Assembly (NCBI GenBank): GCA_965248915.1
Contig: OZ252216.1
Coordinates: 2,857,807-2,921,806, forward strand
DNA from: Alphaproteobacteria bacterium
Lineage (GTDB): Bacteria; Pseudomonadota; Alphaproteobacteria; M2410
Direction: 5' to 3'
DNA length: 64,000 nucleotides
Shown: in pieces, positions 12,562 through 63,237 of the stretch
Position numbering within the stretch: the stretch's first letter is position 1
How the letters are laid out: the number at the start of each line of letters is the position of its first letter
Made by a program: the position numbers and the translations under genes
The notes under the pieces: generated by a model
Databases searched by the model: none
What the model saw: the letters and a program-made list of their open reading frames with translations, nothing else
Told to the model about the DNA's origin: nothing

Positions 12562-13227
12562 ATGGGTGAGTTTGGCTCAATTTCGACAATTCTGGCAATC
12601 ATCGCCGGTGTTTTCTTCGGTACAAATGCGGCTGCTGCGGAAAATACTGACGCTGATGTGACAACCATCGTGCTCTTTGGCGACAGTATTGCGGCTGGAT
12701 ATGGCCTCCCCCCAGAAGATGGCCTAACGAGCAAACTCGAAGCAAGGCTCAAGGCCTCAAGTCCCCAGATCGTGATGAAAGCTGCTGGCGTCTCTGGCGA
12801 TACAACCGCAGGCGGTTTGGCAAGGCTCGATTGGTCGGTCGGGCCCGACACCGATGTCGTCATTCTCGTTCTTGGCGGCAATGATGCACTTCGCGCCATT
12901 CCGCCAAGCGAAACCGCCGCCAATCTCGACGCGCTGGTTTCCGGGCTTGTGGACAAAGGCGTTCAGGTCCTTCTGACCGGCATGCGAGCGCCACCCAACT
13001 TGGGCTCAGAATATGCAGAAGAGTTTGAACCCATTTTCGCCGCGGTCGCCAAGAAACATGGCGTCACGTTCTATCCCTTTATCTTGGAAGGTGTGGCAGC
13101 CGACCCCAACCTCAACCAAGCCGACGGCATTCACCCCAATGCGCAAGGGGTCGATGTCATTGTTGAAGGTCTCGCGCCGTTCATCCTTCAAATGATCGAG
13201 CAGGCAGACGCCATGGGCGCATCTTAG
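12562..13227 (+). CDS. tesA: Arylesterase / acyl-CoA thioesterase I (SGNH/GDSL hydrolase, TesA-like)
   Basis: GDSI block (LFGDSIAAG), GGND block, signal peptide. Divergent from ybbA as in the E. coli tesA-ybbA locus. Confidence 0.8.
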   Translation: MGEFGSISTILAIIAGVFFGTNAAAAENTDADVTTIVLFGDSIAAGYGLPPEDGLTSKLEARLKASSPQIVMKAAGVSGDTTAGGLARLDWSVGPDTDVVILVLGGNDALRAIPPSETAANLDALVSGLVDKGVQVLLTGMRAPPNLGSEYAEEFEPIFAAVAKKHGVTFYPFILEGVAADPNLNQADGIHPNAQGVDVIVEGLAPFILQMIEQADAMGAS

Positions 13228-13236
13228 CGAGGCGTC

Positions 13237-13791
13237 ATGTCAATACGGCTCTTTGTAGGATTGGAAATTCCCCCCCAAGCGAGAGTACGATTGGCCACTC
13301 TTCAAAACGGTATTCCAGATGTACGTTGGGTTCCGCCAGACAACTTGCACCTCACCTTGCGGTTCATTGGTGACATAGAAGAACCCCGGCTTCAGGATCT
13401 CACTGACAATTTGAGCCGGATCGATATAGAGAGTTTTGAACTCACTCTTGCGGGGTTTAGCACATTCGGCCGCGGCAAACCGCGCGCGCTCTGGGTGGGC
13501 GCAGAACCCAATCCGCGTCTCCTGCAGCTTCAAGAGAAGATTGAACGCGCCATTCAAGCCGCAGGCCTACCGCCCGAACAGCGCAAATTCACACCGCACG
13601 TCACATTGGCCCGCTTCAAGCAGACAAAGCCTTCGAAGATTGTTCCCTATCTAGAGGTCAATGGAGCAATCATACTCCCCTCGCTCGAGATCCAACATTT
13701 CACATTGTTTTCAAGTCAACTGAGTCACAGAGGAAGCACCTACCGCATCGAACATCAATTCGATCTGCGACGGGGACACCTGCTCACCTAG
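13237..13791 (+). CDS. thpR: RNA 2',3'-cyclic phosphodiesterase (2H phosphoesterase, ThpR/LigT)
   Basis: Two H-x-T-x motifs (HLTLRF and HVTLARF). Confidence 0.85.
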   Translation: MSIRLFVGLEIPPQARVRLATLQNGIPDVRWVPPDNLHLTLRFIGDIEEPRLQDLTDNLSRIDIESFELTLAGFSTFGRGKPRALWVGAEPNPRLLQLQEKIERAIQAAGLPPEQRKFTPHVTLARFKQTKPSKIVPYLEVNGAIILPSLEIQHFTLFSSQLSHRGSTYRIEHQFDLRRGHLLT

Positions 13792-14266
13792 TATGTGTGG
13801 CGCGCAAATATTCAAGAAAGGCCCGCGAGCCATCCTCAATGAGATCCATCGCTTTTTCGAAACCTTTGCGCCGACCGCTGTAAGGATCAGGCACATCGAC
13901 AGCTTTGTCCCCTTGCGCAAAGCGCATAAACAAATGAACCTTCTCCTGCACTTCATCAGATTGCCCAGCTCGTAGGGTCTCTTCTACAGAGCGATCCATC
14001 GCGATCAAATAATCGAAGCCATTGAAATCTTGCCAGTGCAAGGGTCGGCTCACGCAGGTTGATAAATCATACCCTCTTTTTTTCGCAATGGTCAAAGCGC
14101 GTCTTTCCGCAGGTTCACCTTCGTGCCAACCAGAAGTTCCAGCAGAATCGATCTCAATAAGGTTGCCCAATCCAGATTCGTCCACCAATTGCTGGAACAC
14201 GCCCTCCGCCATCGGCGACCGACAGATGTTGCCTAGGCACACAAATAAAACACGGACTTGGCTCAT
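13784..14266 (-). CDS. Low-molecular-weight protein-tyrosine phosphatase
   Basis: CLGNICRSPMAEG P-loop signature (C-X5-R). Confidence 0.85.
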   Translation of the reverse strand: MSQVRVLFVCLGNICRSPMAEGVFQQLVDESGLGNLIEIDSAGTSGWHEGEPAERRALTIAKKRGYDLSTCVSRPLHWQDFNGFDYLIAMDRSVEETLRAGQSDEVQEKVHLFMRFAQGDKAVDVPDPYSGRRKGFEKAMDLIEDGSRAFLEYLRATHTR

Positions 14267-14431
14267 TTCGTAAACTCTTGTGTCATTCTCACCACGGCCC
14301 CATATCCAACAGGACCTGAAGGGCGTTGGCAAGCCGCCAATAACCCTTAAAAGTGCATCACGTTCCCTTTTGTTGAGCTAGTTGAGGGGACAGGCTAATA
14401 TATCGACCGCAGAACAAAGAAGGATCTACTT

Positions 14432-15157
14432 ATGAACAAGGACGTTTTGTTGGAGTGGGGCAAAACCATCGCCATCGTCGTTGGACTGGTTTTTGCCATT
14501 CAAACCATCGCCTTTGCGTCTTTCCACATTCCGTCTGAAAGCATGGCGCCTACATTGACAGTTGGTGATCGTGTTGTGGTGACGAAATTTTCTTATGGCT
14601 ATTCACGCCACTCTGTTCCTTTCAGCTTGGCCCCATCGCTCCCAACCAAGAGCGGACGCATCATCGGCCAAATACCTAGTCGCGGCGACATTGTTGTCTT
14701 TAGACACACCCGCGACGACATCACCATGATCAAACGTGTGATTGGGTTGCCTGGAGATCGCGTGCAGGTAAAACAGGGTCAACTTCATCTCAATGGAGAA
14801 TTGGTCGAACGAGAAAAATCCCGCGAGTACACATACACGACTCGAAACGGTCAATCCTACCAAGTCCGCGAGTACATTGAACAACTACCAGATGGGCCGG
14901 CCCACACGATCATCGAAATTGCGCCAGATAGCCTTATGGACAATACGAGAGAGTATACGGTCCCCGAAGGGCATCTGTTTATGATGGGAGACAATCGAGA
15001 CATGTCGAGCGACAGTCGGTTCCTCAACAAACTCGGCTTCGTGCCATTCGAAAACCTCATGGGCCGAGCTCAAGTGATCTCATATTCCTTGCACAATTGC
15101 GCCAAGAAGAACCCCGATATCTGCAATTCGAGCAGAATTCTGAAACGGCTGAAGTAG
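14432..15157 (+). CDS. lepB: Signal peptidase I (copy 1)
   Basis: N-terminal TM, catalytic SESMAPTL (Ser box), IKRVIGLPGD (Lys box), GDNRDMSSDSR box. Confidence 0.9.
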   Translation: MNKDVLLEWGKTIAIVVGLVFAIQTIAFASFHIPSESMAPTLTVGDRVVVTKFSYGYSRHSVPFSLAPSLPTKSGRIIGQIPSRGDIVVFRHTRDDITMIKRVIGLPGDRVQVKQGQLHLNGELVEREKSREYTYTTRNGQSYQVREYIEQLPDGPAHTIIEIAPDSLMDNTREYTVPEGHLFMMGDNRDMSSDSRFLNKLGFVPFENLMGRAQVISYSLHNCAKKNPDICNSSRILKRLK

Positions 15158-15179: not shown

Positions 15180-15932
15180 ATGTCAAGAAACTCCACAAAC
15201 AAAAATAGGTGGCACAAGAAGCCAAGAGAGTGGATTGCAAGGATATTGTTCGTTGTTGCCTTCACGGTGGCTATCAGTTTTTATGCAAGCAAGACATACA
15301 CGGTCACCGCGGATAGCATGACTCCGGCACTTGTCGCCGGCGATCGTGTCATTGTGAGCAAATTCACGTATGGAATTTCACGCTATTCGTTTCCCTTCGG
15401 AATACTCCCCTCTTTCCCGACCAAATCAGGGCGCCTATTTGGGAGTGAGCCCAAGCGGGGACACATTGTTGTATTTCACCACACCAAAGAACAAATTGTA
15501 ATGATCAAACGGGTGGTTGGCTTGTCTGGTGACCGAGTTCAGGTCAAAGGGGGGCAACTTCACCTCAACGGCAAGCCTGTCGAAAGGGAAAAGTCCCGAG
15601 AGTACGAATACGCGGCTCGCATCGGGCAATCGTATCAAGCCCAGGAATACATTGAGCGCCTGCCAGGCGGATCAGCGTATGCTATTATTGAAATCACAAA
15701 CGATGGGCCATTGGACGACACGGATGAGTTCACGGTCCCAGATGGACACTTGTTTATGATGGGGGACCACAGAGATATTTCGAGCGACAGTCGACTCATC
15801 GATCGTCTCGGCTTTGTACCTCTTGAAAACCTGATGGGGCGAGTGCGTTTTATCTCCTTTTCGAAGGGAGATTGCGATGAAAGGAATCCCGATATCTGCA
15901 ACTCAAGCAGAATACTAAAGAGACTGCATTAG
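15180..15932 (+). CDS. lepB: Signal peptidase I (copy 2, tandem paralog)
   Basis: Same boxes ([29 protein letters not shown]). About 60% identical to copy 1, including an identical C-terminus [14 protein letters not shown]. Confidence 0.9.
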
Positions 15933-25954: not shown

Positions 25955-27175
25955 ATGACGAACGACAAAATCAAGAAAGTCGTGCTCGCCTATTCCGGCG
26001 GCCTCGACACGTCGATCATCTTAAAATGGCTCGAGACCACCTATGGCTGCGAGGTGGTGACCTTCACCGCTGACCTTGGCCAAGGCGAAGAACTTGAGCC
26101 CGCACGTAAGAAAGCAGAACTGATGGGGATCAAAGAGATCTACGTCGAGGATCTGCGTGAAACTTTCGTGCGCGACTATGTCTTTCCCATGTTTCGTGCC
26201 AACGCCCTTTACGAAGGAACTTATTTGCTCGGCACGTCGATCGCCCGGCCCTTAATCGCCAAACGCCAAATCGAGATTGCAAAGGAGGTTGGCGCCGACG
26301 CCGTCTCTCACGGTGCCACTGGCAAAGGTAATGACCAAGTGCGCTTTGAGCTTGGCTACTACGCGCTTAACCCAGACATCAAAGTCATTTCACCGTGGCG
26401 GGAATGGGAGTTCGTCGGTCGCGAGGACCTGATCAAATTCGCCGAACAAAACCAGATCCCCGTCGACAAAGACAAGCGCGGCGAAGCACCCTTCTCGGTC
26501 GACGCAAATCTCCTCCACATCTCCTGCGAAGGCAAAGCACTGGAAGATCCGGCCGCTGAGGCCCAAGAGTATATGTATCAACGCTCCGTTGCACCGGAAC
26601 AAGCGCCCGACACCGCAACTGTGATTGAGGTTGAATTCAACAAAGGTGACGCGGTCGCCGTCGATGGCAAAAAGCTCACGCCCGCCACCTTGCTCACCAA
26701 ACTCAATGAGTTGGGTGGCGCAAACGGCATTGGCCGAGCCGACATTGTTGAGAACCGTTTCGTGGGTATGAAATCTCGTGGTGTTTATGAGACGCCAGGT
26801 GGCACGATCCTGCTCGCAGCCCACCGCGCCATGGAAAGCCTGACCCTCGACCGCGAAGCGACCCATCTCAAAGACGAGATCATGCCGCGTTATGCCAAAC
26901 TCATCTACAATGGGTTTTGGTTCTCACCGGAACGCGAAATGCTGCAAGCCTTGATCGATAAGTCGCAAGACTTTGTCACCGGCTCCGTGAAACTGAAACT
27001 CTTCAAAGGCTCAGTGAGCGTGGTTGGACGCGCCTCGCCCTATTCGCTCTATTCAGAAGAACATGTGACCTTTGAAGAAGACTCAGTTTACGATCAGAAG
27101 GACGCCGAAGGCTTTATACGCTTGCAAGCCCTTCGCCTCCGCCTCCGCGCCAAAGCACAAGAAGTGCCGGAGTAG
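25955..27175 (+). CDS. argG: Argininosuccinate synthase
   Basis: [11 protein letters not shown]-loop motif; 406 aa type-1 ArgG. Confidence 0.92.
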
Positions 27176-27200: not shown

Positions 27201-28202
27201 CTATTCACCCGCCGGGACTGTGAGCGCTTCAAGTGATTCAAAGAGTCTCTCGAAGTGCATTTGAATCAGCGTGCCCTCAAGGACCAACTCTGCCCAAGGA
27301 AAAACGACAACTAGTAAGAGAATAAGCATGATCGCGATTGGAGCGAAGACCAGCACCTGCCCAGTCCGTGTCAATCTAACAATCCTACCTTTGAGTTGCC
27401 CAAACTCTAGTGGCTTAGGGTCTCCAGACGCATCCGTTTCATTCAGAGTATTCAGGTACTCACCCACGCCAAATCTTCTTGCAAGCCAACTGTTATAGCC
27501 AATCAGACCAACGATAATGGGATACATCAAAACAAACAGGGCACCGAATGACAGAGCCACAATCCATGTCATCAAAATTGAGGTCTCGAGAAAAAGTCGC
27601 GTGAAATCATGCCCGAGGTTTGCGCCAGAGATAAGCACAGGAATGACACTGGCATAGTACACGCTGCCAAGCGCGAAAACAGCCGACAGAACTACCATCA
27701 ATGGCATCACTTTTATAATTTCCTTCACAGCCCATTGCTGTCTATCAGGCACCGCAACACCTCGTGGGTACGGATTGGCTTTTCCAGACAGACCGAATTG
27801 TATAGTTGGGAGTATTGCCATCAACGCTGGAATCCAAGCGCCGACAAATATGAACCCATTATCGTCGAGCAATAGTGGAAGCAACAACAATCCTGGCCAC
27901 AGCCCCACTAGAGGAATGAGAAGCAGCATTCCGGGCCAGAAGGCGAAGTTCTTAACTGCCAACAAACCAAGCGCCAGCAGAACAACAAGTGCACCCGTCA
28001 CAATCAGATGAAGACTAAAGACCGGAACAAACGACGCGTGTGAGGGAATAGGGTCATCAAACAAGGCGAACAGGGGCGCCGAGTCATTGATCCCCGCCCA
28101 AATTGCCCAGCAGCCGATAGCGACATTGACCGCGCCAAGCGCCAAAAACAAAATCCGCCGCACAGGACTTTCATTCCCAACGTTCGGCTCAATCTTTTCC
28201 AT
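27201..28202 (-). CDS. Hypothetical polytopic membrane protein (paralog A)
   Basis: 333 aa; lower-GC codon usage; shares architecture and a C-terminal module with 30169..31173. Confidence 0.5.
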   Translation of the reverse strand: MEKIEPNVGNESPVRRILFLALGAVNVAIGCWAIWAGINDSAPLFALFDDPIPSHASFVPVFSLHLIVTGALVVLLALGLLAVKNFAFWPGMLLLIPLVGLWPGLLLLPLLLDDNGFIFVGAWIPALMAILPTIQFGLSGKANPYPRGVAVPDRQQWAVKEIIKVMPLMVVLSAVFALGSVYYASVIPVLISGANLGHDFTRLFLETSILMTWIVALSFGALFVLMYPIIVGLIGYNSWLARRFGVGEYLNTLNETDASGDPKPLEFGQLKGRIVRLTRTGQVLVFAPIAIMLILLLVVVFPWAELVLEGTLIQMHFERLFESLEALTVPAGE

Positions 28203-28459
28203 CTATCTCGCCACCCAACAACTTGAACCAAGCACCTTAACTAAACCTACAGTTGAAACAAAAGGCCGTCAATACAGACCCCAGCGAGAGCGCCTTGCCA
28301 TCACGGGGTGCTCCTCCTAGGCTTCAAGCCAACAAACAAAAGACAAAACCACCCGGGGGTTCTCATGGCGCATCGCCCTTCCCTGTTCTTCGTGCTTATC
28401 CCTTTTCTTTTTGTCACCGCCTGCGGCCAAGAAACGGTTACATCACCTTCGGAGGATGA

Positions 28460-29085
28460 ATGACCTACGCGCTCTACGCACGCAAAGGCTGGGGCTCTGC
28501 CATCTCAGAGGCCATGCTGGCCTACGCAAGCCTCGACTACGAACTTAGAGATCCCAAAGGCAACCGCGCCAAAGGCGTGCCTCCTTTGAAGGAAATCAAT
28601 CCTCTCGTTCAATTCCCAACCCTCGTCTGCCCGGACGGGCACATCATGACCGAAAGTGCCGCCATCCTTTTCCATATCGACGACATGGCACCAAAAGCAG
28701 GTCTCGTGCCAAAAAGAACGCGAAAGAGCGACGCGACTTTTTGCGGATACTTCTGATCATCGTCGGCGCCATCTACCCGACATTCACTTACGCCGATTTT
28801 CCCGGCAGATATGTCTCATCGAAGAAGGCGCAGACCGAACTCGTGACTTCCAGCAAACAAAAGCGCAACGAACTCTGGCTCGACATCGAAAATCTCATCG
28901 ATCCAGATCCTCATGCCCTCAGCAAGCGATTCACCGGTCTTGATGTTTATGCCGCCGTAATGACCCATTGGGGTCCTCGAAGACGGTGGTTCACAGAGCA
29001 CTGTCCGAAACTGATGTCCGCCGCCAAAGCCGCCGAAGGCATCGACACACTACAGCCCGTTCTTCATAGGAATTTCAAATCATGA
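28460..29085 (+). pseudogene. Glutathione S-transferase, frameshifted (N-terminal thioredoxin-like domain in frame 2, C-terminal helical domain in frame 1)
   Basis: ORF 28460..28756 carries a GST N-terminal domain (YARKGWGSAISEAMLA...VPTLVCPDG...ESAAIL). ORF 28741..29085 carries a GST C-terminal domain. Continuity needs a frame change near 28700-28745. Confidence 0.6.
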
Positions 29086-29465
29086 CAGACCCGGTCAACC
29101 ACAAAGGTGGGTGTCACTGCGGTGCCGTCAAGTTCGAGGTCCGCGCGGGCGCACGCATTGAGGTGGTTGACTGCAACTGTTCCGTCTGTCGAATGACCGG
29201 TTTCAAACACTTGATCGTGCCGAAGGAAGATTTCACGCTTCTCACCTCAGAAGAAGCGCTCACCGACTACCAGTTCGGAACCAAGACCGCCCACCACTTG
29301 TTTTGCAAAACCTGCGGCATCAAATCTTATTACCTCCCCCGCTCACATCCAGATGGCGTGTCAGTCAATGTGAATTGCCTCGAACCGGTAACCATCAAAG
29401 CCATGGAACTAACCCCCTTTGACGGCGCCAATTGGGAAGACGCCATCGACGACCTCACCGACTAG
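29082..29465 (+). CDS. GFA family protein (glutathione-dependent formaldehyde-activating enzyme / CENP-V-like)
   Basis: GGCHCGAV...CNCSVCRMTG zinc-binding Cys pattern. Confidence 0.85.
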   Translation: MTDPVNHKGGCHCGAVKFEVRAGARIEVVDCNCSVCRMTGFKHLIVPKEDFTLLTSEEALTDYQFGTKTAHHLFCKTCGIKSYYLPRSHPDGVSVNVNCLEPVTIKAMELTPFDGANWEDAIDDLTD

Positions 29466-29597
29466 GAGTTTCAGGTGCCGCAAAACATCTTTGTTCCAAT
29501 GGTGTACAATAACAAAGCGCTTCCAGGAAAAGTGGAGGCCGGTTTTCCGGCCGGAAGCGCGTTAGAAAAACAGGCGTATTCGAGCTAGCCAGAGGAG

Positions 29598-30164
29598 TTG
29601 ATAGAGATGACGAACGTTTTCGTGCCGATGGCATACAATAACGCCTGGGCCAACCATCGCCTGATTTCCGCATGTGAAAAACTCACCCAAGAAGAATTTG
29701 AAGCCGAACGCGTGAGTTTCTTCCCGACGCTCAAGGCAACACTCAATCACAATCTCACCGTCGACCGGTTCTATGTGGATGCCCTTGAAGGTGGCGATCT
29801 TGGCTCAGCGGCCTTCGACGAGGATGAACCTTGCGTGACACCGCGTGACCTGAAAGAAAAACAAGAGAAGGTGGACCGACGGCTCATCCAGTTCTGCAAA
29901 AGTTTGAGGCCTGACGATCACACCGCAATCACCGCCATCAATCGCGGGCCTTACGTGCAAGAAGAGCTCACCGACCGCCTGCTCCTCCATCTCTTCCAGC
30001 ACCAAATTCACCACCGCGGTCAGGTCCACGCCATGCTCTCAGGCACGTCTGTCAAACCACCGCAACTCGACGAGTTTTTGATGTCTGGCGAACGCGCCCG
30101 CAACGCCCGCGCGGGGGACATGGAAGCCTTAGGTTGGACGGAAGAGGAGATTTGGGGAACCTAG
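29598..30164 (+). CDS. DinB/YfiT-like (DinB_2) family metal-dependent thiol transferase-like protein
   Basis: NNAWANHRLISACEKLTQEEF...TLNHNLTVDRFYVDAL...HQIHHRGQV, i.e. the His-triad DinB_2 pattern. Confidence 0.7.
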   Translation: MIEMTNVFVPMAYNNAWANHRLISACEKLTQEEFEAERVSFFPTLKATLNHNLTVDRFYVDALEGGDLGSAAFDEDEPCVTPRDLKEKQEKVDRRLIQFCKSLRPDDHTAITAINRGPYVQEELTDRLLLHLFQHQIHHRGQVHAMLSGTSVKPPQLDEFLMSGERARNARAGDMEALGWTEEEIWGT

Positions 30165-30168
30165 GTCA

Positions 30169-31173
30169 TCAAGGTCTGGGCTCAACAAACAGACCATCGA
30201 CTGACTCGTAGTTGTGCTCCCAGACCGCAAAGAAGAGCCGACTCAACCAACTCTCTGGATTATCAATGATGAAGAATTCAATTCCAACAATCAGAGCCAG
30301 CATCACTAAGATCGCAAGCAGCCAAATTGTGATTTGAATTCGAACTCCTGTCTTGGAGACCTTGATGTACTGTTGGCCTTGTGATGTTCTCGGCAGAAAA
30401 CGGTGCTCCATGGGATGTTTCCGGTAGACCCCCACTGCAAAATGTCGAGATATCAATCCACCTGACCAGATGAAGGTCGCAAGCAATAGGATCATCGGGA
30501 AGGTGGAAATCACCACAAACGGCGTCATCGCAATGCTGCTTGTAACGACAAGCGAAACCAATGCAATGCCAAACCCTTCGATAGGAGCAAGTCCCTTCAC
30601 GAATATTGAGAACTCTATCGACGGCAATATATTGAAGACGGAAAATAAAAACGCCGAAAAAAGTACAATGAAAGGCAGAACAATAACTGGTGGCCCAGGA
30701 ATCGCGGCACGCCATGGCATTGCAATTGAATCTGGGTATAGAATTTGAGGTCGTAGCCCGACGGCCGAAGATATACCATGTAACAAAGCGACTGCTGCAA
30801 GACCGGGAAAGTGCAATTCGAAGAATGGAATGACAGTCATGGTCACTCCAGCCGATATCTCCACTAAGAATCCCATCAACATCAAGAGAACGATCAAGAT
30901 CGAAAAGAACTGCCGTCTAACTGAATTCCAAAGTACGCCCAATGAGAAGACGCTCAAAATTACACTCAGCCACAAATGGATCGTCATGAGACGCACGGCG
31001 TGCTCTGTCGGGTACGGAAGGGCAGACATCGGCGAATAGGGAACCGCGACACCAAGTGCCGCTCCAACGGCCCAGGCAAAAGCCACCACATTGAGCCCCA
31101 TCAGGATGAACAATGTACGCTTCCGCGTCTTCGAAAGCACAGGATCGACAGGATCGATAAGTTCCACGCGCAC
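30169..31173 (-). CDS. Hypothetical polytopic membrane protein (paralog B)
   Basis: 334 aa; low GC; architecture parallels 27201..28202. Confidence 0.5.
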   Translation of the reverse strand: MRVELIDPVDPVLSKTRKRTLFILMGLNVVAFAWAVGAALGVAVPYSPMSALPYPTEHAVRLMTIHLWLSVILSVFSLGVLWNSVRRQFFSILIVLLMLMGFLVEISAGVTMTVIPFFELHFPGLAAVALLHGISSAVGLRPQILYPDSIAMPWRAAIPGPPVIVLPFIVLFSAFLFSVFNILPSIEFSIFVKGLAPIEGFGIALVSLVVTSSIAMTPFVVISTFPMILLLATFIWSGGLISRHFAVGVYRKHPMEHRFLPRTSQGQQYIKVSKTGVRIQITIWLLAILVMLALIVGIEFFIIDNPESWLSRLFFAVWEHNYESVDGLFVEPRP

Positions 31174-31222
31174 CCCACACCAAAACCGTGAGGGGAACCC
31201 ATCTCACACTAGGGAATTCTCG

Positions 31223-31444
31223 TCAAATCTCCATGGGGATCTTGGGACGGAAGAAGTTGAGGCGTAGCGCGTCAATCTTGGCGACAACTTCCGCCTCAAG
31301 CGCACCCAACGCTTCTGCATCAACAATCTCTTGAAGCTCTTGCCGATTCTTCACGCCGAGAACGAGCGTGTCGACCCCGTCCATTTGCAAGGCATAGCGA
31401 TGGGCCAGGATGGCCGGGTTTTCCCCGAGCTCTGCACACAAGGC
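31223..31444 (-). pseudogene. Orphan duplicated 3' end (last 74 codons plus stop) of the aldo/keto reductase gene at 32772..33776
   Basis: 222 bp nearly identical to 32772..32993, with 2-3 synonymous mismatches in the first 30 nt. It begins exactly at the stop codon. Confidence 0.9.
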
Positions 31445-31520
31445 TTTGTTATGTAACTCGCAAAAATCCCAATTTCTAGGTTTGTATAAGGTATTTTCGG
31501 AATTATGCGGCACGAGGTGG

Positions 31521-31600
31521 CTTGTGATTCACCAGTGATTCACAAACCTATTTGTATTTCATATTTTGAGTTTTATGATTCACAAACATATTTGTGTTAC
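31521..31600 (+). promoter_or_regulatory. AT-rich promoter/operator region upstream of fic with repeated TGATTCAC / TGATTCACAAAC(C/A)TATTTGT motifs
   Basis: TGATTCAC at 31524, 31536 and 31576. Two 20-nt near-identical repeats at 31536-31555 and 31576-31595. Imperfect palindrome ACAAACATATTTGT. Confidence 0.45.
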
Positions 31601-31660
31601 ATAAATGTTTGTTTATAAGCCACAATTGATTGCACCAATTCAACCCTTAGAATAAGATGG

Positions 31661-32767
31661 GTGTCCATGCAACCATATACTCCAGAAGCGCTACCGCCAA
31701 GAGATCTCGACTGGGCGCAACTCATCGAGGGCTTAAGCAATGCCAACCAAGCTATTGCTCGCTATGACGGAAGGTTGGAATCACTCCACAATCCAGCAGT
31801 CCTGCTGTCACCGCTTACAATGCAGGAAGCAGTCATGTCTTCTCGCATCGAAGGTACCGTAGCAACGTTGAGTGACGTGCTAGAATACGAAGCTGGACAA
31901 ACAGACATTCACCCCGAAAAAAGAGAAGACATTCATGAAATTCTAAACTACCGCACAGCGATGAATGTCGCTGTTCGAGAATTGGTATCGAGTCCTATTA
32001 CCCTAAAGTTGATCAAGCGCCTGCACTTTATTCTCATGGACAGCGTTAGAGGTCGTAACAAGAGAAGGGGAGAAATTCGTGTAATACAAAACTGGATCGG
32101 CCCCAAAGATCGCCCAGTTGAAGAGGCGTATTTCATTCCCCCGATTGCTCTTGATCTCGAAAGACATCTTACCCACTTCGAAACATATGCCAATTCTCGC
32201 CAGCCAGACGCACTCATCCAGGCGGGCCTTCTTCATGCTCAATTCGAACTACTTCACCCATTTCTCGATGGTAATGGAAGGCTCGGACGACTTCTCATCC
32301 CGCTCTTCCTATCCAAGCAGGGCGTATTGCAGTCGCCAATGTTTTACATTAGTGGCTATCTGGAAACACATCGGCAAGAATACTATGACCGACTACAAGC
32401 CCTGTCCGAGCAAAGAGATTGGACCGGCTGGCTCAACTTCTTTCTGAAGGCCATCACGTCGCAATCAGACGAGAACTCCGGGCATATACAGGCAATTCGC
32501 ACTCTCTATGAATCGATCAAGGTCAATGCAATCGAAGAGATAAGGTCACAATATTTCATTCAAGCGATCGACACAATATTTACCCGCCCATATTTCACGA
32601 CAACGCTGTTCACCGAAGAGTCAAGCATACCCAGACCAAGCGCAATCAGGTTATTGAATGCTCTTGAGGAACTTGACATCATACTTCAACTCCGGCCGGC
32701 GAGCGGGAGTCGGCCCGCCGTCTATTCATTCCCGGAGCTTCTTTACATCGCCGAACGAAACGACTGA
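31661..32767 (+). CDS. fic: Fic family protein (AMPylase-type, class II with N-terminal inhibitory helix)
   Basis: Fic active-site motif HPFLDGNGRLGR; inhibitory motif SSRIEGT (S-x-x-x-E-G) near the N-terminus; lower GC than surroundings. Confidence 0.9.
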   Translation: MSMQPYTPEALPPRDLDWAQLIEGLSNANQAIARYDGRLESLHNPAVLLSPLTMQEAVMSSRIEGTVATLSDVLEYEAGQTDIHPEKREDIHEILNYRTAMNVAVRELVSSPITLKLIKRLHFILMDSVRGRNKRRGEIRVIQNWIGPKDRPVEEAYFIPPIALDLERHLTHFETYANSRQPDALIQAGLLHAQFELLHPFLDGNGRLGRLLIPLFLSKQGVLQSPMFYISGYLETHRQEYYDRLQALSEQRDWTGWLNFFLKAITSQSDENSGHIQAIRTLYESIKVNAIEEIRSQYFIQAIDTIFTRPYFTTTLFTEESSIPRPSAIRLLNALEELDIILQLRPASGSRPAVYSFPELLYIAERND

Positions 32768-32771
32768 CCCC

Positions 32772-33776
32772 TCAAATCTCCATCGGGATTTTGGGACGGA
32801 AGAAGTTGAGGCGTAGCGCGTCAATCTTGGCGACAACTTCCGCCTCAAGCGCACCCAACGCTTCTGCATCAACAATCTCTTGAAGCTCTTGCCGATTCTT
32901 CACGCCGAGAACGAGCGTGTCGACCCCGTCCATTTGCAAGGCATAGCGATGGGCCAGGATGGCCGGGTTTTCCCCGAGCTCTGCACACAAGGCGCGGTAG
33001 GGCTCAGCACGGATGTAATCCTGCATATCCGGCTCGTTGACATCCATCGACCGGTCAATTTGTGCCGTTAGTGCGCCTGCTTGCACAGCGCGAATGCCCA
33101 TGACACCCACATCATTGTTCTTCGCGGTGCGGATGATATTGCGCGGCTCCGGTGGTTCCTCATAGCGACGAATGCCGCCGGGCGAATCCATCAAGTTCGT
33201 GATCGCTTGAACGACCGCCGGCTTTGTCTCTTGTCGAAGTGCCGCCATGATGGTGGCGGGAAGGCCTGTGCCGGTAAGGCCCCAAGCGCCGATGAGCCCG
33301 CGCTCCTTCAAGTTTTCAACAGCAGGGATGAAAGCGTCTAAATAGTTCGACCACGACACCGTCCAGCGTTCTTGGGTATCACTGTTTTGCGCCATCACAT
33401 AATTGTCGGGGATGACCTGACAATGCAGGAAGAAGAGATCAACGCGGTCTTGTTTGAGGGCTTCGAAACTTCGCATGAGTGAGCGTTCAATCTTGGCCAA
33501 CATGTCATCTGGCGGCAATGTGCCGGTCAGGCATTTGGTGGTGACGCACACACCCTCTGGCAACCTGCCGCCAAAGGTCTCCCCCACCACGCTTTCTGCT
33601 TCGCCGCGCCCATACATCGGCGCCAGGTCAAGGAGCGTAATGCCAGCATCAACAGCCGCCTTCACCGTTGCGACCGCTTCTGCCCGCGTCGTTTCACCCC
33701 AAATTTGTCCAAGTCCGCCACCGCCCAGCGTCAGCGCACTTACAGGGCCAAAGCCCCCAAGCTCTCTCATGTCCAT
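32772..33776 (-). CDS. Aldo/keto reductase family oxidoreductase
   Basis: 334 aa with AKR fold motifs (GLTGTGLPA; C-terminal module). Its 3' 222 bp are duplicated at 31223..31444. Confidence 0.8.
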   Translation of the reverse strand: MDMRELGGFGPVSALTLGGGGLGQIWGETTRAEAVATVKAAVDAGITLLDLAPMYGRGEAESVVGETFGGRLPEGVCVTTKCLTGTLPPDDMLAKIERSLMRSFEALKQDRVDLFFLHCQVIPDNYVMAQNSDTQERWTVSWSNYLDAFIPAVENLKERGLIGAWGLTGTGLPATIMAALRQETKPAVVQAITNLMDSPGGIRRYEEPPEPRNIIRTAKNNDVGVMGIRAVQAGALTAQIDRSMDVNEPDMQDYIRAEPYRALCAELGENPAILAHRYALQMDGVDTLVLGVKNRQELQEIVDAEALGALEAEVVAKIDALRLNFFRPKIPMEI

Positions 33777-33832: not shown

Positions 33833-34507
33833 CTAACTAACGACCCCGTATTGGTCGTAAAGATCGGTCCGGTAGTAATCACGTTGCTGTTCGAGCTCGA
33901 CGAGATCCTGCTGCAAATACTTGATCTCCTTTTCGAGATCATCCTCAGCTTTCGACAGCTCGACCACTTTGATCACCAACTTCATGCGGGCCAAATCGGT
34001 CATATCCCCTTCGACGATCTCCCACTGGGTCTCTTCGATCTCATGGATGATGTCCTCAAGGTCAGACCGGTGCGACCGGATCGTGGCTTGTTGGGCAGCC
34101 ACTTTCCGGTTGTATTGATAGAGTTGACGCCCCGCCTGATAAGCTGCCGAAAACACGCCGTCGCTGTCCTCAGGGCACACATTGGCGTAAGCACCACCAC
34201 GAATACCGACTTGCAGGCCATTGGGTTCGCGACAATATGTCTGAAGGCCCTCTTCGCGGCCGTCCGAATAGGCAAGGAAGTTGGGTGTCACACCATGGGC
34301 CGCACACGCTTTGCGGTGACGCGCGATGTGATCTGCTGAACGGCCCTGAACGCCGTCCTCAAAGCCAACCGCATTCCAATCAGCGGCGACACATTCACTC
34401 TCGCTCATAGAGGCACACGCACTCAACAAAGAGGCACCCCCCAGCATGGCAACAAGCGCAATTGACTTCAGTCCCGTCATCATCCGTACCCTTCTTATTT
34501 GAATCAA
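33833..34507 (-). CDS. DUF2799-domain lipoprotein
   Basis: Lipobox LLSAC; the ECVAADWNAVGFEDGVQGR repeat is typical of DUF2799. Confidence 0.55.
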   Translation of the reverse strand: MIQIRRVRMMTGLKSIALVAMLGGASLLSACASMSESECVAADWNAVGFEDGVQGRSADHIARHRKACAAHGVTPNFLAYSDGREEGLQTYCREPNGLQVGIRGGAYANVCPEDSDGVFSAAYQAGRQLYQYNRKVAAQQATIRSHRSDLEDIIHEIEETQWEIVEGDMTDLARMKLVIKVVELSKAEDDLEKEIKYLQQDLVELEQQRDYYRTDLYDQYGVVS

Positions 34508-34591
34508 ATTCGAACGGTTTCCCGTTCAAACCTGCATCAATGAGAAGTGTAGGAGGGAGGGACTAACAATTGCTTAGACTTACTTAAGAGT

Positions 34592-35848
34592 TTAACGATA
34601 CCCGCGAATATCCCAAGCACCTTCATGACCAAGCGCGAGGCGCGCGATCTTCTTTGACATGTTGTAACCACCGCGCTTGCGGCTGACGAAATCCAGGAAC
34701 CCGCCAGTATTGGTAAGAATGACAATACCGTCACCGGTATCTGGATCAATGACGAAAAGACCCTGGTAGCCTGGGTTACTGCCCCAGTGCCAATAGGTCG
34801 TGCGCTCATCAGACATATCGATGCCGATGCCCGCTGCCCAGGACGTGCGTTTGTTGATTTCAACCATCGGCGCCAACATGGCATCACGCGTTTCCACTGA
34901 AACAAGAGTGGGCTTGATGAGCTCCACCGCGAAACGCGCGAGATCATGAACCGTAGTCTCAAGGCTTGAGGCCAACATCACCTCGTTTTCTACCGAATTG
35001 ATGGGAACGGTAACCCGGGACATGGCAAAAAGAGCGCTAGCGCCAATAACAAAGATGGTCAGGACGGAAAGAAAGAGACCGCGAACAAAGCCGAAAGATC
35101 TAAAGAAGAAGGCCGCACCAAAGAGAACAATAACACTGAGAATGATCAACATGGTTCTGCCACGTTTTTGATCGACCTCTTGTGCCCGGCCTGACAACAG
35201 ACCAAACACCAGATCCACATGGCCAGTCGCCATCTGTTCCGTCACCGCCGGTTGAAACCGTGCACTTGTCATATCAAGAGGCGTAAAAATTCGCTCCTCA
35301 ATCCAGGCGTTCGCCGCCACGCCTGTTTCCGCTTCAATCATGGATTGGACCACATGATAGCCCTGGCCTGCATAGGAAAAGTCGGGCTCATCTGAACAGG
35401 CAGCGACAAATTCCTCTGCAAAGATATCGTTGCCAAGCCCAGCTGTGTGGGAAAGGGCCTGACCCAAAGTGGGGCGTGCGCAATCCTTCTTGAGTGTTAG
35501 TCGCGCATCCTCAATCGGGTCATTTAAGGACATGCGCCCCTCTTCGATCAGCGCAAAGGATGCGTAGGCCGCAATCATCTTGCCGTTCGACGCGGCCTGG
35601 AACTCGGTTTCCATGTCTGTGAGTTCTAGGGTCTCCATGTTCTTGACCCCAAACATCTCTACCCAAGCAATCTCACCATCGCGAATAAGCGCAATGCCCG
35701 CGCCCGCGACATCTGCCTCCTTCATGAGGTCAGGGATCGCCGCGCGTAGCTCATCAATCGAGACAGGCTCCGCACTGGCGCCAGCAAGAGAGCCGGTAAA
35801 TCCAAAGGCGAGCATCAAAGGGGTTAGAATTCTGAGAAAGAAAGTCAC
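34592..35848 (-). CDS. Serine hydrolase (beta-lactamase/PBP-like transpeptidase fold)
   Basis: Signal peptide. S-x-x-K-like motif FQAASNGK; class C beta-lactamase-like fold with a C-terminal membrane segment. Confidence 0.65.
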   Translation of the reverse strand: MTFFLRILTPLMLAFGFTGSLAGASAEPVSIDELRAAIPDLMKEADVAGAGIALIRDGEIAWVEMFGVKNMETLELTDMETEFQAASNGKMIAAYASFALIEEGRMSLNDPIEDARLTLKKDCARPTLGQALSHTAGLGNDIFAEEFVAACSDEPDFSYAGQGYHVVQSMIEAETGVAANAWIEERIFTPLDMTSARFQPAVTEQMATGHVDLVFGLLSGRAQEVDQKRGRTMLIILSVIVLFGAAFFFRSFGFVRGLFLSVLTIFVIGASALFAMSRVTVPINSVENEVMLASSLETTVHDLARFAVELIKPTLVSVETRDAMLAPMVEINKRTSWAAGIGIDMSDERTTYWHWGSNPGYQGLFVIDPDTGDGIVILTNTGGFLDFVSRKRGGYNMSKKIARLALGHEGAWDIRGYR

Positions 35849-37559: not shown

Positions 37560-37635
37560 GGGGCCGTAGCTCAGTTGGGAGAGCGCTACGTTCGCAACGT
37601 AGAGGTCAGGGGTTCGATTCCCCTCGGCTCCACCA
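37560..37635 (+). tRNA. tRNA-Ala (anticodon CGC)
   Basis: Manual cloverleaf: acceptor GGGGCCG/CGGCUCC with the G3:U70 alanine identity pair. D arm GCUC-AGUUGGGA-GAGC. Anticodon loop UUCGCAA. T arm AGGGG-UUCGAUU-CCCCU. Encoded CCA end. Confidence 0.9.
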
Positions 37636-37653
37636 GGGATTTGGGAAAACACA

Positions 37654-38139
37654 ATGCGTCTATCACTGGCCGCCACTTTTCTTTCTTTTTTCATCGTGGT
37701 TGCACCAAACAGCGCCAAGGCCGTTTGGTCCCCGTGGGAGTATTTTGAGGTCGGCGGCGGCGCGGCAAAGGGCGGAAGATCCGGTGTCAAAGTTGCGGAC
37801 CCACGCAAAGGTCAATCTATCGCCATCATCTGTATGCCAGCCCAAAATCAATTGGTGGTCGCGATCCGCAACGGCCCAAGAGACAACAGGTATGACAAGC
37901 AGCGAGCGGTCACCTGGCGCGTCGATCTCGCTCCCGCGGTCTCAACAACTTTCATGAATTTGGACCAAGGCGGGGCCGGCCTGTTTGATCCCAACCAAGT
38001 TCGCACATTTATGAGCGCATTGCGCTTCGGGCGCGACAATGTCCTCATTCGAAGCAACGGCGACACCATCGAAGCTCCCTTAGATGGCTCTGCTTCTGCC
38101 ATCGGCGAGTTGATTGAGGCATGCCCCCTCGTAAACTAG
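37654..38139 (+). CDS. Hypothetical exported protein (signal peptide)
   Basis: N-terminal signal peptide ending APNSAKA-VW; no recognisable domain. Confidence 0.45.
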   Translation: MRLSLAATFLSFFIVVAPNSAKAVWSPWEYFEVGGGAAKGGRSGVKVADPRKGQSIAIICMPAQNQLVVAIRNGPRDNRYDKQRAVTWRVDLAPAVSTTFMNLDQGGAGLFDPNQVRTFMSALRFGRDNVLIRSNGDTIEAPLDGSASAIGELIEACPLVN

Positions 38140-38145
38140 CGCACC

Positions 38146-38235
38146 TCACACAAAAGGATGCGGATAATCGGGCGGGCGCCCTTGAAATTCCAAGACGGCG
38201 GGCTTCTGGACCACCCCTTCATCTACAGTGATCAC
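38146..38235 (-). pseudogene. Diverged orphan copy of the 3' end (about 29 codons plus stop) of the gene at 39245..40387
   Basis: Minus-strand translation VITVDEGVVQKPAVLEFQGRPPDYPHPFV* versus the gene C-terminus NTDEGVIQKPAILEFQGRAPDYPHSFV*. About 80% nucleotide identity. Confidence 0.8.
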
Positions 38236-38296
38236 GTCAAAAAAAGTCATACCCGATTTCCTCTATTCTCGGTCCACAAGCACCAAGCAATCACAA

Positions 38297-39025
38297 TTAC
38301 CACATTGCGTTTGGGGTCTTCTTTTGTTCGTGCAAATCCCCGCCGCTTATCCGGTCCCAGAACCGGCCGCCGACCAATTGCTCTGCGTCATAAGTGACAA
38401 CAAGATATTCACCGAGATCGCCAGTTAACTCTCGATTCTCCATCTCAAAAGTCCAAAGCGACAATCTTCCTTTTGCATCTTCGGCAAGAACACTTTTGAT
38501 GAATGCATGGGGAACAGGCACATCGATGCCATAGTCGTCATTCTCATCCCCAATTGTCTCCACTTTCTCTCCAAAGTAAAAGACCGGGGCTGTCAAGACA
38601 TAGGTCTCAAGGATATCCTCTCGATCATTCAATACCCGCACTGCCTTCTCAAGCTCTCGCCACTTGCGTCGATTGAATTCCGGTTTTTGCGGTGACATGT
38701 TTGACAGCAAAAAGGTTTCGCTATTTTGAATCTCCTGAATGTCTTGGTTTGCACTTGCAACAAGATGGCCGCGATCAAATCCGCTACCGCTGTAAGCACC
38801 AAGACCCGCGCGGAAACGTTTTGGTATTCTTGTTTCCGCCCGAAAGTGGTCTTGGCGTTCTACTTCTGAAAGGAGATGTTCGTTTCGATTTACAATTTCC
38901 AGCGTCCATTTTGCTTGTCTGAAGTACCATGAATAGCCAATCGTAAAAAATCGACCCGTTAGTATCTCATCACATACGGGAGCTCCGTAACGAAGTTCAG
39001 GTTGAATCTGAAATGGATCATTCAT
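38297..39025 (-). CDS. DNA/RNA non-specific endonuclease (Serratia nuclease/EndoG family; DRGH motif); alternative start at 39097
   Basis: FDRGHLVASANQ catalytic motif with a downstream SNMSPQ (N) motif. No signal peptide. Lower GC than neighbours. Confidence 0.8.
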   Translation of the reverse strand: MNDPFQIQPELRYGAPVCDEILTGRFFTIGYSWYFRQAKWTLEIVNRNEHLLSEVERQDHFRAETRIPKRFRAGLGAYSGSGFDRGHLVASANQDIQEIQNSETFLLSNMSPQKPEFNRRKWRELEKAVRVLNDREDILETYVLTAPVFYFGEKVETIGDENDDYGIDVPVPHAFIKSVLAEDAKGRLSLWTFEMENRELTGDLGEYLVVTYDAEQLVGGRFWDRISGGDLHEQKKTPNAMW

Positions 39026-39244
39026 ATCAATTCTCTTTCGGTCATCATCGTTCAATTGCTCGTGGCCAGCCAATCGACAAACCACACATGAAAACATCTA
39101 ATAATTGTTATTCCACAGAAAAGCAACCTTCGACAATTGAGCAAACTCATTCCTATGTCAATATCAATCTAGTGAACGTGACGGCGAATGCGGGCGGAAG
39201 ACATAGTAGGTTTCTACGGCACTTCAAATTTCACGATCCCAGAA

Positions 39245-49360: not shown

Positions 49361-50821
49361 CTATACGGACCATTCATGCACTGGTTGTTTAGATTTTTGA
49401 CGCGCCAAATAGGCCTGGGTCAGCTGCGCCATATCCTTACCCTGGGACGCAACAAAATTTCGTTGCCAAGTAGCACCGGTTCGACCCGTGCGGGTTCGCG
49501 CTTCAATCACCCCCAAATACCCGTCAATGTCCTCTTTGGAAATCTCAAGCTTTTCAAGGCCCTGGCGCGCCATTGGCAACAGTTCTTCTAAGATAAGGTC
49601 CCGAACCCGGATCTTGCGATGGTTGAGCCAGACCACTTCTGCCGCCAGTCCATCCTTGGCCGCCGCGTAGAAATTATTCCGAGAGAATCGGTAAGGTAAA
49701 TCTTCCTCCGGCGGCACAGCCTCGTGCGCCAAAACCTCAACCAGACCAAAATAGAAGGCCGCATTGGCTACACAATCGCGAATCGTTGGCCCAGCCGGAA
49801 TAACCCGGTGTTCAATCCGCAAATGGGGCTGACCATCAGGCTCATTGCCCAGCAAAGCGCGATTCCACCGCCAAATCGTTCCATTGTGAAGTTTGAGGTG
49901 GCCCATTTCGGAAGGCGGGCCATCGCTATTACGCGGCAACAACGCTGGATAACGTTGGCGATTAGCCACGAACATCTCAGACAAGCACCGGTCCAAATAA
50001 CGAACACCAAAAGTCACCCGCTCTGCATAGTCCCACTCGCCAACGGAAATGGCCTGCTCGAACAAAGGAATGCGCGTTTCGTCCCACAAGTCTCGCCCGA
50101 ACAAGTAGGGCGAGTTCGCAGAAATTGCGACCATCGGTGCACTGACAATTTTCGAGGCGTTGTAGTAGCGCGCACCGCTATGTTGGTTGACTTTGAGATG
50201 GATTTGATACGAAGTCGCCGCCGCCTCGAGCATTACATCATAGTGCGTCGTGCTAAGTCTCTCGCGCCCTTCTATTTCCAAATTGATGGGTTTGCCTTCC
50301 CGCATTCGGAAGATTTGTTCGTTAAGTGCCTTATACCTCTGCCAAGCTGACATGTGCTCGTTGGTAAGATCTTGCTCACGCACCGTTGGCAAGATGCCGA
50401 TCATCATCAGGTCGAGCCCCATCTCGGACGCTTTGTCGGCCGCCATTTGCCAGGTCCCAGACAATTTCTCATCCATCTTAGACAATGCATCTGATTTGAG
50501 AGTTTCGGGATCCGTGTTGAACTCGACGTTGAAGAGGGAAAGTTCTGGCACCACTAGGGGGCTATTGAGGGCCTCCAGATATTCAGTATTTCGAGGTGCG
50601 GGTAATCCATCTTTGTCGATGAGCCAGGCCTCAAGTTCGGATCCGCCTTGATGGGCGCCGGAATAGAACTTCTCTTCCTTGAACCAGGTCTCCAGAAGCT
50701 CGGTTTCCGCACGAAGATTACGTTCAAAAGTGGCGAAGTCCTCATCGTTGAAGAACGCCTTGCCGATCTCTTCTCCCATACGCCGCCTGCCTCCTCCATC
50801 GACGAACCAATTACGGGACAT
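49361..50821 (-). CDS. gshA: Glutamate--cysteine ligase, plant/alphaproteobacterial type (GCS2 family)
   Basis: 486 aa. The motifs PTVREQD...MMIGILPT and the overall pattern match the GshA of plants and alphaproteobacteria. Confidence 0.75.
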   Translation of the reverse strand: MSRNWFVDGGGRRRMGEEIGKAFFNDEDFATFERNLRAETELLETWFKEEKFYSGAHQGGSELEAWLIDKDGLPAPRNTEYLEALNSPLVVPELSLFNVEFNTDPETLKSDALSKMDEKLSGTWQMAADKASEMGLDLMMIGILPTVREQDLTNEHMSAWQRYKALNEQIFRMREGKPINLEIEGRERLSTTHYDVMLEAAATSYQIHLKVNQHSGARYYNASKIVSAPMVAISANSPYLFGRDLWDETRIPLFEQAISVGEWDYAERVTFGVRYLDRCLSEMFVANRQRYPALLPRNSDGPPSEMGHLKLHNGTIWRWNRALLGNEPDGQPHLRIEHRVIPAGPTIRDCVANAAFYFGLVEVLAHEAVPPEEDLPYRFSRNNFYAAAKDGLAAEVVWLNHRKIRVRDLILEELLPMARQGLEKLEISKEDIDGYLGVIEARTRTGRTGATWQRNFVASQGKDMAQLTQAYLARQKSKQPVHEWSV

Positions 50822-62139: not shown

Positions 62140-63237
62140 TCAGGTATTCGACCGAACCACCGACCAAACTGCCCCAATGATCGAGCTCGCCGGATGTTTG
62201 CTTTCATTGCTGAAAACGACAATAACGATACCTAGTTCTGACGCCCAAAAATAACCAGCTTCAAAAACATCATTGGCACCAAAAGACACTGCGTATGGGT
62301 CACCGGACTTGAATCTTTCAGAGAAATAGCTGTGATACGACTTCAACCCCTTGCCGCCCACCAGCTTGCCTGAACCCAAGGCATCAAACATCTTTGCCAA
62401 GTCGATTGCATCTGAATACATGCCGCCGGACCCTCTAAGAATCCACGAAGGGCCGTCCGATTGCCATGGCCAATCCAGTGTCGTACCCCAACGACTTCCA
62501 TCAATGTACCCAACCGCTACATCGTCTCTTCCATATCCCGGAATGAGATATCCTGTCCGTGTCATATTGGCTGGTTTGAATATGTTCTCAGAGATATATT
62601 GCTCATATGGCAGTCCCGACACCTCTTCGATGACGACAGCCAGCAGTCCATATCCAAAGTTCGAATACAGCTCGTCGCCCTCCGGCACGCTCTGAAGTTG
62701 TGACATCAGTGTTCGATGCACGAGCTGTTCTTTCGATATCATTATCCCGTCAATTTCAGGTGTGAAAGGGATGGGACGAAAATTCTCATCAACAATATCT
62801 GCTAAACCAGAAGTGTGTGTAAGGATGTCAACGAGCCGAATGTCTTTCTTGTCATCCGGTACGTTTGGGAAATGTTGGTCCAGCCTGTCTTCGACACTCA
62901 GAAGACCCCTTTCATCTAATTGATAAACTGCAAGAAACGTCATCTCTTTGACAAGAGATCCAATGTCATATGGTGTATACGGCGTATTACGCTCATGCGC
63001 CTCACGATCAGCGAACCCGTACCCTCGTTGAAACAGAACCGATCCATGTTGTTTGACCACCACGACGCCCGATCCACCCTCAGCTTCCCAAGACAGGAGT
63101 TTTTCGTTCAGTGTCGATTCCAGGTCCAAAGTATGATTCGAGCCCACGCTTCGACAAGAAATAGGGATCGAAACAACAAGAAGAAAAGTCGCGAACCTTG
63201 ATATCATCTCATTCATCAAATCAGTTCCATCTGCCAT
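62140..63237 (-). CDS. Serine hydrolase (beta-lactamase family)
   Basis: Signal peptide. Class C beta-lactamase-like SxxK (SLVKEMT) and YSN motifs. Confidence 0.7.
   Translation of the reverse strand: MADGTDLMNEMISRFATFLLVVSIPISCRSVGSNHTLDLESTLNEKLLSWEAEGGSGVVVVKQHGSVLFQRGYGFADREAHERNTPYTPYDIGSLVKEMTFLAVYQLDERGLLSVEDRLDQHFPNVPDDKKDIRLVDILTHTSGLADIVDENFRPIPFTPEIDGIMISKEQLVHRTLMSQLQSVPEGDELYSNFGYGLLAVVIEEVSGLPYEQYISENIFKPANMTRTGYLIPGYGRDDVAVGYIDGSRWGTTLDWPWQSDGPSWILRGSGGMYSDAIDLAKMFDALGSGKLVGGKGLKSYHSYFSERFKSGDPYAVSFGANDVFEAGYFWASELGIVIVVFSNESKHPASSIIGAVWSVVRSNT

Follow-up and report, generated by a model that had tools for sequence, protein, structure and literature searches.

The interval at positions 27201–32771 of a 64-kb stretch of alphaproteobacterial DNA (contig OZ252216.1; the whole stretch is hereafter the window) fills the gap between argG and an aldo-keto reductase (AKR) gene. 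It is probably a long-standing variable slot between two convergent anchors, argG and AKR-folD, and holds a mosaic into which a fic unit has been recombined. This mosaic would have three components, namely resident GFA and DinB genes with a disabled GST gene, two orphan membrane protein genes which we call memA and memB, and the self-contained fic unit. An earlier note on this DNA had described the same interval as one horizontally acquired electrophile or thiol-stress module. The most informative feature is the SoFic-type fic gene with, on either side of it, a 222-nucleotide (nt) direct repeat of the 3' end of the AKR gene; this repeat was absent from that note and is a new observation here. 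The features at the AKR end of the gap are these (aa, amino acids; GC, guanine plus cytosine):

31223–31444, minus strand: left repeat copy, a displaced fragment with the last 73 codons and the stop codon of AKR (Aldo_ket_red profile positions 230–289), GC 56.8%.
31445–31666, plus strand: fic upstream region, GC 32.9%, with a 40-nt tandem repeat at 31536–31615.
31667–32767, plus strand: fic, 366 aa, with Fic_N and Fic domains (Pfam), GC 48.8%.
32772–32993, minus strand: right repeat copy, 4 bp beyond the fic stop codon, with which the intact AKR gene ends.
32772–33776, minus strand: AKR gene, intact, 334 aa (PF00248, E 1.7e-51), the conserved right anchor of the gap.

The two repeat copies are directly oriented, 222 nt long and 1,549 bp apart from start to start, with 2 mismatches (99% identity), and nothing but fic with its 222-bp upstream region occupies the intervening 1,327 bp. 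Homology begins exactly at the AKR stop codon and breaks off abruptly at 31444|31445. On the minus strand the left copy is followed by a 49-bp spacer and then by memB. The anchor is duplicated directly around the insert and one of the copies is continuous with the intact AKR gene, which is the arrangement of an integration scar. Both mismatches are synonymous third-position changes at most 12 nt from the stop codon. In both variable positions, and over the three nucleotides that follow the stop codon, the right copy agrees with two related loci (L016 and L009), and it is the left copy which is derived. Synonymous differences would be expected if the copies come from two functional alleles.

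We suggest that two haplotypes of the slot existed in closely related strains, one with memB next to AKR and the other with fic next to AKR. These may have been joined when a circularised fragment with fic and 222 bp of AKR integrated by a single crossover or, by a second route, through homologous recombination within AKR together with one illegitimate join. The repeat boundary at the stop codon and the synonymous differences fit this account. The donor-type arrangement is seen in L009, in which fic is convergent with AKR at a distance of 13 bp and a search for the AKR 3' duplication found none. Since fic abuts AKR there without duplication, the fic|AKR junction in the window need not be new. 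The sole necessarily novel junction is 31444|31445, where the AKR 3' end with its own downstream context (spacer and memB) meets the fic upstream region. Such a join leaves AKR intact, and were the repeats to recombine through RecA, fic could be lost again in the form of a 1,549-bp circle.

Single-crossover integrants of E. coli carry 109–950-bp duplications of the homologous segment (PMC3240628). A join that is homologous on one side and illegitimate on the other has been proposed for the displacement of type VI secretion system (T6SS) and Rhs toxin modules (PMC5361080). The arrangement in the window resembles the scars of Campbell-type or homology-facilitated illegitimate recombination in the direct duplication of the anchor, the intact target gene, and a repeat length (222 nt) within the 109–950 bp range. 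Unlike the experimental scars it is a natural case deduced from one genome, both the donor and the recipient haplotype being reconstructed. Unlike the T6SS and Rhs modules its cargo is a Fic gene with no effector-immunity pair.

The event might instead have taken place within a single genome. On this view fic has always abutted AKR, and a 222-nt copy of the nearby AKR 3' end came to lie 222 bp ahead of fic, whether as filler DNA from template switching in break repair or as what a partial deletion left of a larger duplication. The fic-AKR adjacency in common with L009 speaks for this, as does a divergence of Fic (about 62% identity) commensurate with that of its neighbours, which fits vertical descent; the right copy is ancestral and the left could be decaying. 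We consider an intragenomic event unlikely. From its exact start at the stop codon the copy continues into a 49-bp spacer and the co-oriented memB, as would be expected of genuine AKR-downstream context and not of random filler. Moreover both substitutions are synonymous in the copy that is supposedly decaying, for which we estimate a chance of roughly 7%, and two novel junctions are required rather than one.

Several points weigh against the joining of two haplotypes. Neither a fic-less memB-AKR haplotype nor a near-identical donor was observed, no same-species genome being part of the comparison. When genome contigs were scanned with AKR the closest match had 74% identity and no same-species empty-site or donor haplotype was found; in the metagenome scan the closest had 64%. 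The memB-AKR arrangement was not found, memB having no homologs, and for that reason this haplotype is purely a reconstruction. Pairwise identity among the Fic proteins of the window, L009 and L013 is about 62%, a value similar to those for AKR (68%) and GFA (61–69%), so that fic could be an old vertical resident of the slot and the duplication intragenomic. Two substitutions are too few to separate allelic differences from decay after duplication. Finally, the GC content of fic is below that of its neighbours in L009, L013 and L010 as well; low GC is thus a family trait in several hosts and is uninformative on the time of arrival.

Direct repeats of the 3' end of a gene which itself remains intact are the classical signature of gene-end-targeting elements. 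The two copies could be the attL and attR sites of a degraded site-specific integrative element that targeted the AKR 3' end, brought a replacement 3' end with it and has since lost its integrase. The repeat is of this form, AKR being intact, and in both lineages, that of the window and that of L009, fic adjoins the 3' end of AKR. Such an element is nevertheless highly improbable, in that neither the stretch between the repeats nor its surroundings encode an integrase, excisionase or recombinase domain, L009 is without the repeat, and other close Fic relatives lie at unrelated sites.

Repeats in an assembly usually collapse and seldom expand, and we regard an assembly artefact as the origin of the duplication as extremely improbable. 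There are two differences between the copies, whose four flanks are distinct and well defined, and one copy completes an intact AKR open reading frame (ORF) of conserved length. What could be said for an artefact is that the assembly is apparently a single 3.54-Mb contig and that a frameshift in an A-run of the GST gene hints at homopolymer errors.

Recombination of a fic unit into the slot, the explanation which we prefer, raises the question of what this gene encodes. Its ATG start at 31667 is supported by an identical 366-aa protein (P0001). The catalytic motif HPFLDGNGRLGR is found at residue 197 (consensus HxFx(D/E)GNGRxxR), and an inhibitory motif, SSRIEG, at residue 58 within Fic_N and N-terminal to the Fic core (consensus (S/T)xxxE(G/N)). 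Because both motifs are in the same polypeptide the protein belongs to class II as the Fic classes are defined (PMC3667792, PMC12249575). It aligned with the SoFic structures 3eqx, 3zcn and 9tc4 (E about 1e-32, residues 22–343) and matched the PADLOC SoFic model PDLC03963 (E 2.7e-108, profile positions 7–359 of 361). The C-terminal region is aligned with the SoFic winged-helix domain, by alignment only and through residue 343. We predict that the fic product is a class II, SoFic-like AMP transferase and that fic is a candidate defence gene.

SoFic is a single-gene anti-phage system and toxin (PMC12249575). It AMPylates EF-Tu, and its dimer binds its own promoter no more than 100 bp from the start codon (bioRxiv 10.64898/2026.07.09.737422). 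The protein described here resembles SoFic of Shewanella oneidensis in its domain order, inhibitory helix, Fic core and length (366 versus about 372 aa). Its gene is also preceded by AT-rich DNA with dyad-symmetric sites, which agrees with the report that SoFic binds its own promoter. By this analogy the Fic dimer would use its C-terminal winged-helix domain to bind the palindromes described below and so keep its own gene repressed, while the enzyme would be restrained by its N-terminal inhibitory helix. Once activated it may AMPylate a host protein such as EF-Tu, an activity proposed to underlie the abortive-infection phage defence of SoFic.

The assignment also has its counter-evidence. Against the NCBIfam SoFic equivalog NF046030 the protein scored 159 bits, the cut-off being 550. 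It is only distantly related to the characterised SoFic proteins (about 30% identical), and both the defence role and EF-Tu targeting are extrapolated across that distance. Unlike SoFic, fic is here without an AS1-like small gene downstream, since the AKR stop codon is 4 bp away; between fic and AKR we found no AS1-like antitoxin or other meaningful small ORF, and as regards a terminator the hairpin was no better than shuffled sequence (z -0.28). The next Fic relatives (54–56% identity) occur in unrelated contexts, and other close relatives lie next to a transporter, the ribosomal protein L25 gene, or GFA. Plasmid and phage collections gave no clue to a vector for fic, the best matches being 47% in plasmids and 38% in phages (32% for the sole full-length phage match).

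Within the 40-nt tandem repeat of the fic upstream region there are two palindromes, each with the sequence CACAAA-N4-TTTGTG, at

31541–31556, and
31581–31596.

With at most one mismatch allowed, these two are all that the 64 kb contain (expected number 0.16; 0 of 100 shuffles gave 2). In L013/L014 and L010, whose contexts are unrelated, the same palindrome with 0–1 mismatch precedes the fic homolog by 58–135 bp, and upstream of fic in L009 and L011 there are only weaker matches, with 2–3 mismatches. We infer that the palindromes are a candidate autoregulatory operator of fic, by analogy with SoFic, and that fic presumably travels as a self-contained unit of promoter plus gene. The junction at 31435–31450 reads CACACAAGGC|TTTGTT and resembles CACAAA-N4-TTTGTG with 2 mismatches. 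It is only suggestive that this operator-like sequence might be the microhomology used in an illegitimate join.

The rest of the interval is made up of five genes:

27201–28202, minus strand: memA, a predicted polytopic membrane protein of 333 aa with about 7–8 hydrophobic helices, GC 49.8%.
28460–29085, plus strand: GST, broken by a 1-nt frameshift, with a GST_N domain on residues 5–74 of the first ORF (Pfam), GC 53.8%.
29082–29465, plus strand: GFA/CENP-V family zinc protein, 127 aa (PF04828, E 3.5e-15), GC 54.7%.
29598–30164, plus strand: DinB-family protein, 188 aa (PF05163, E 4.7e-21), GC 55.4%.
30169–31173, minus strand: memB, a predicted polytopic membrane protein of 334 aa, GC 48.8%.

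This agrees with the gene content given in the earlier note, that is, two paralogous membrane ORFs, a frameshifted GST, GFA, DinB and Fic_N+Fic. Its placing of the right edge at fic is borne out too, as fic abuts the AKR stop codon.

The GC profile of the window is not flat. At a window mean of 53.4%, the GC content is 50.6% in 27201–32771 versus 53.6% for the remainder, and among all 5,571-bp windows the interval ranks within the bottom 0.5%, the lowest value being 50.5% for the one that begins at 27051. The drop that had been proposed from inspection is therefore real, but it amounts to about 3 points rather than roughly 8 and is patchy. The flanks are not at 57–60% throughout, the flanking genes having 53.5–58.7% (argG 54.7, AKR 57.4, folD 58.7). 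GST, GFA and DinB are at background GC, and the low values are confined to memA, memB, fic and the fic upstream region. Codon usage, scored alongside 24 reference genes from the window, divides the genes in the same manner. GC at third codon positions (GC3) is 0.60–0.68 for GST, GFA and DinB, with codon scores within the range of the reference genes, and 0.50–0.54 for memA, memB and fic (memA 0.52), with codon scores below the reference minimum. The GC dip comes only from these three genes of atypical codon usage. Tetranucleotide deviation, which had been put forward as a check, reaches its window maximum at 30001–33000 and is unremarkable over 27–30 kb.

Comparable GC dips occur elsewhere in the window at 14–16 kb, 38–39 kb and 62–63 kb. 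The first (49% GC) contains tandem paralogs of S26 signal peptidase at 14432–15157 and 15180–15932, the second of which is codon-atypical. At 37560–39097 a tRNA-Ala(cgc) is followed by an ORF at 37654–38139 with no Pfam match and by a non-specific endonuclease gene at 38297–39097 (low GC, GC3 0.44); this may be a small islet at the tRNA. A beta-lactamase-fold gene at 62140–63237 has a GC3 of 0.47 and atypical codon usage.

Orthologs of AKR with 57–78% identity adjoin folD in about 20 related loci, and in about 17 the frame folD-AKR-gap-argG-rlmN is kept. The order folD-AKR-gap-argG(-rlmN) is found in L003, L016 and L020–L037, with gaps of 2.1–4.4 kb versus 35 bp in L001 and 5.6 kb here. About 15 distant metagenomic loci (AKR 57–64%) and L003 keep folD-AKR-gap-argG, most of them with rlmN beyond, and the gaps of the distant loci mostly hold a beta-lactamase-fold gene, the Tag glycosylase gene and ppa, with occasional extra genes. 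Among the nearer relatives the gap region is as follows:

L016/L017 (AKR 78%, FolD 81–82%, ArgG 87%): argG, SnoaL, hypothetical, AAA_28, GFA, Fe-ADH, AKR, folD; L016 is the closest relative.
L001 (AKR 74%, ArgG 85%): argG and AKR convergent, 35 bp apart; one of the two closest relatives.
L009 (AKR 68%, FolD 78%): ppa, PnuC, AAA_28, AadA_C, GH20, protease, fic (62%).

With argG and AKR only 35 bp apart in L001, the whole interval is absent there, and the gap content differs among relatives; in being accessory and variable the interval is as the earlier note supposed. At the same time GFA occupies the same gap in L016, and GFA-DinB is kept in L015. Among the closer relatives GFA, together with DinB, recurs as a resident, and fic occurs in this neighbourhood in at least three lineages, at differing positions.

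A second rearrangement at the locus is evident from the beta-lactamase-fold gene, which lies on differing sides of AKR. In the window this gene, together with a DUF2799 gene, is between AKR and folD (33833–35848), and in most relatives folD abuts AKR with the beta-lactamase-fold gene on the other side of AKR. Among the distant relatives, the AKR-argG gap of L029 holds three small genes, one of them DUF7689 (12652–13863), and that of L025 an AAA_14/DUF4143 ATPase (13312–14751), a content which fits a recurrent insertion hotspot.

The GFA start overlaps the GST stop by 4 bp (ATGA). Three-frame translation shows both halves of GST, and extension of A5 to A6 at 28711–28715 gives a 208-aa protein, with a weak alignment to GstA over residues 6–172. 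GST is either a pseudogene or the product of a homopolymer sequencing error. A programmed frameshift was rejected, as CCA-AAA-AGA is not an X-XXY-YYZ slippery heptamer and one extra A restores the frame. GFA is 83% identical to its homolog in L015, 68–69% to those in L016/L017 (in the same argG-AKR gap) and 61–65% to those in L013/L014. The adjacency of GFA and DinB is kept on the short contig L015, in the order SnoaL-GFA-DinB, DinB being 77–80% identical. Upstream of GFA the relatives have five different genes, among them SnoaL, AAA_28, a HAD hydrolase or fic; GST is in this position in no relative examined, and GFA is kept alone or with DinB. None of GST, GFA and DinB received an equivalog-level assignment (NCBIfam). 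Of a glutathione-dependent detoxification operon, the domain matches and the GFA-DinB adjacency are present here, but an intact GST and a conserved co-occurrence of GST, GFA and DinB are not. GFA and DinB look resident, not imported, because of their native composition, the occurrence of GFA in the same gap in L016, and that of GFA-DinB in L015. In L013 (403–1875) and L014 (412–1818) a 62%-identical fic is followed 7 bp downstream on the same strand by GFA (61–65%), so that two genes of the interval are directly coupled in another organism.

It is very unlikely that the whole 5.6 kb is a single acquired thiol/glutathione electrophile-stress island with fic at its edge. Its absence from L001, its place among the lowest-GC 5.6-kb stretches of the window, the confirmed GST_N, GFA and DinB domains and the operon-like 4-bp overlap of GST and GFA would all suit such an island. 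Composition within the interval is however non-uniform, three genes being atypical and three native, where an island should be uniformly atypical. GST, GFA and DinB are native in both GC and codon usage, GST is frameshifted, and GFA is found in the same gap in L016 and GFA-DinB in L015 without GST. The genes that are atypical have no relation to thiol chemistry. There are no mobility genes (Pfam detected no integrase, transposase or recombinase domain in any ORF of 27.2–32.8 kb) and no adjacent tRNA, the only one in the window being at 37560, beyond folD and 4.8 kb from the interval; nor was any repeat shared between the argG and AKR sides found. At least one independent event, limited to the fic end, is recorded by the internal 222-nt repeat. 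With native GST, GFA and DinB, a broken GST, a resident GFA-DinB pair and compositionally foreign genes unrelated to thiols, the unitary thiol-stress module of the earlier note is not supported. The plant-type gshA which had been linked to it corresponds to a GCS2-family ORF of 486 aa at 49361–50821, 16.6 kb off, with only a weak match (E 5e-7), and no related locus examined has a gshA-like gene connected to the interval.

The remaining component of the mosaic is the memA/memB pair. memA is convergent with argG, 25 bp apart, and memB follows the AKR 3' fragment in the same orientation after 49 bp. The two proteins have 24% identity (Smith-Waterman score 120); relative to 15-aa and 8-aa block shuffles, which preserve the hydrophobicity layout, the score has z values of 4.6 and 3.4, and 0 of 400 shuffles reach it. 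Judged by this alignment they are distant paralogs. Neither has a match in Pfam, NCBIfam or PADLOC. A word-indexed search of 5.8 billion protein clusters with memB returned only memB itself, exhaustive profile searching with HMMER over 1.84 billion cluster representatives returned only memA and memB, and in all no homolog was found among about 15 billion proteins. The AlphaFold2 model of memA was unusable, with a predicted confidence score (pLDDT) of 43. We regard both as lineage-specific orphan membrane genes with no link to thiol chemistry.

A bolder proposal is that the argG/AKR gap is a defence-type hotspot in which self-regulated SoFic units are swapped reversibly by RecA through a duplicated core-gene end, a pop-in/pop-out free of mobility genes, with memA and memB as unseen partners, e.g., effectors, sensors or immunity proteins. 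This we consider quite unlikely. The locus is like defence or accessory hotspots without mobility genes in its fixed core flanks (argG, AKR-folD), variable cargo and candidate defence gene. Unlike in defence hotspots, most of the cargo here is metabolic or orphan, and unlike in within-species pangenome hotspots the comparison spans genus- or family-level relatives (AKR 57–78%).

The slot itself is routine, a variable stretch between core genes, and memA and memB are a small curiosity, being without homologs. To our knowledge a scar signature of the kind found around fic has been reproduced experimentally and is rarely seen intact in genomes. The CACAAA-N4-TTTGTG palindromes upstream of diverged SoFic-like genes provide a concrete candidate operator for the recently reported autoregulation of SoFic. 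In the fic scar one sees a way for a candidate defence gene to enter a chromosomal hotspot, and potentially to leave it, through host recombination alone and with no machinery of a mobile element.

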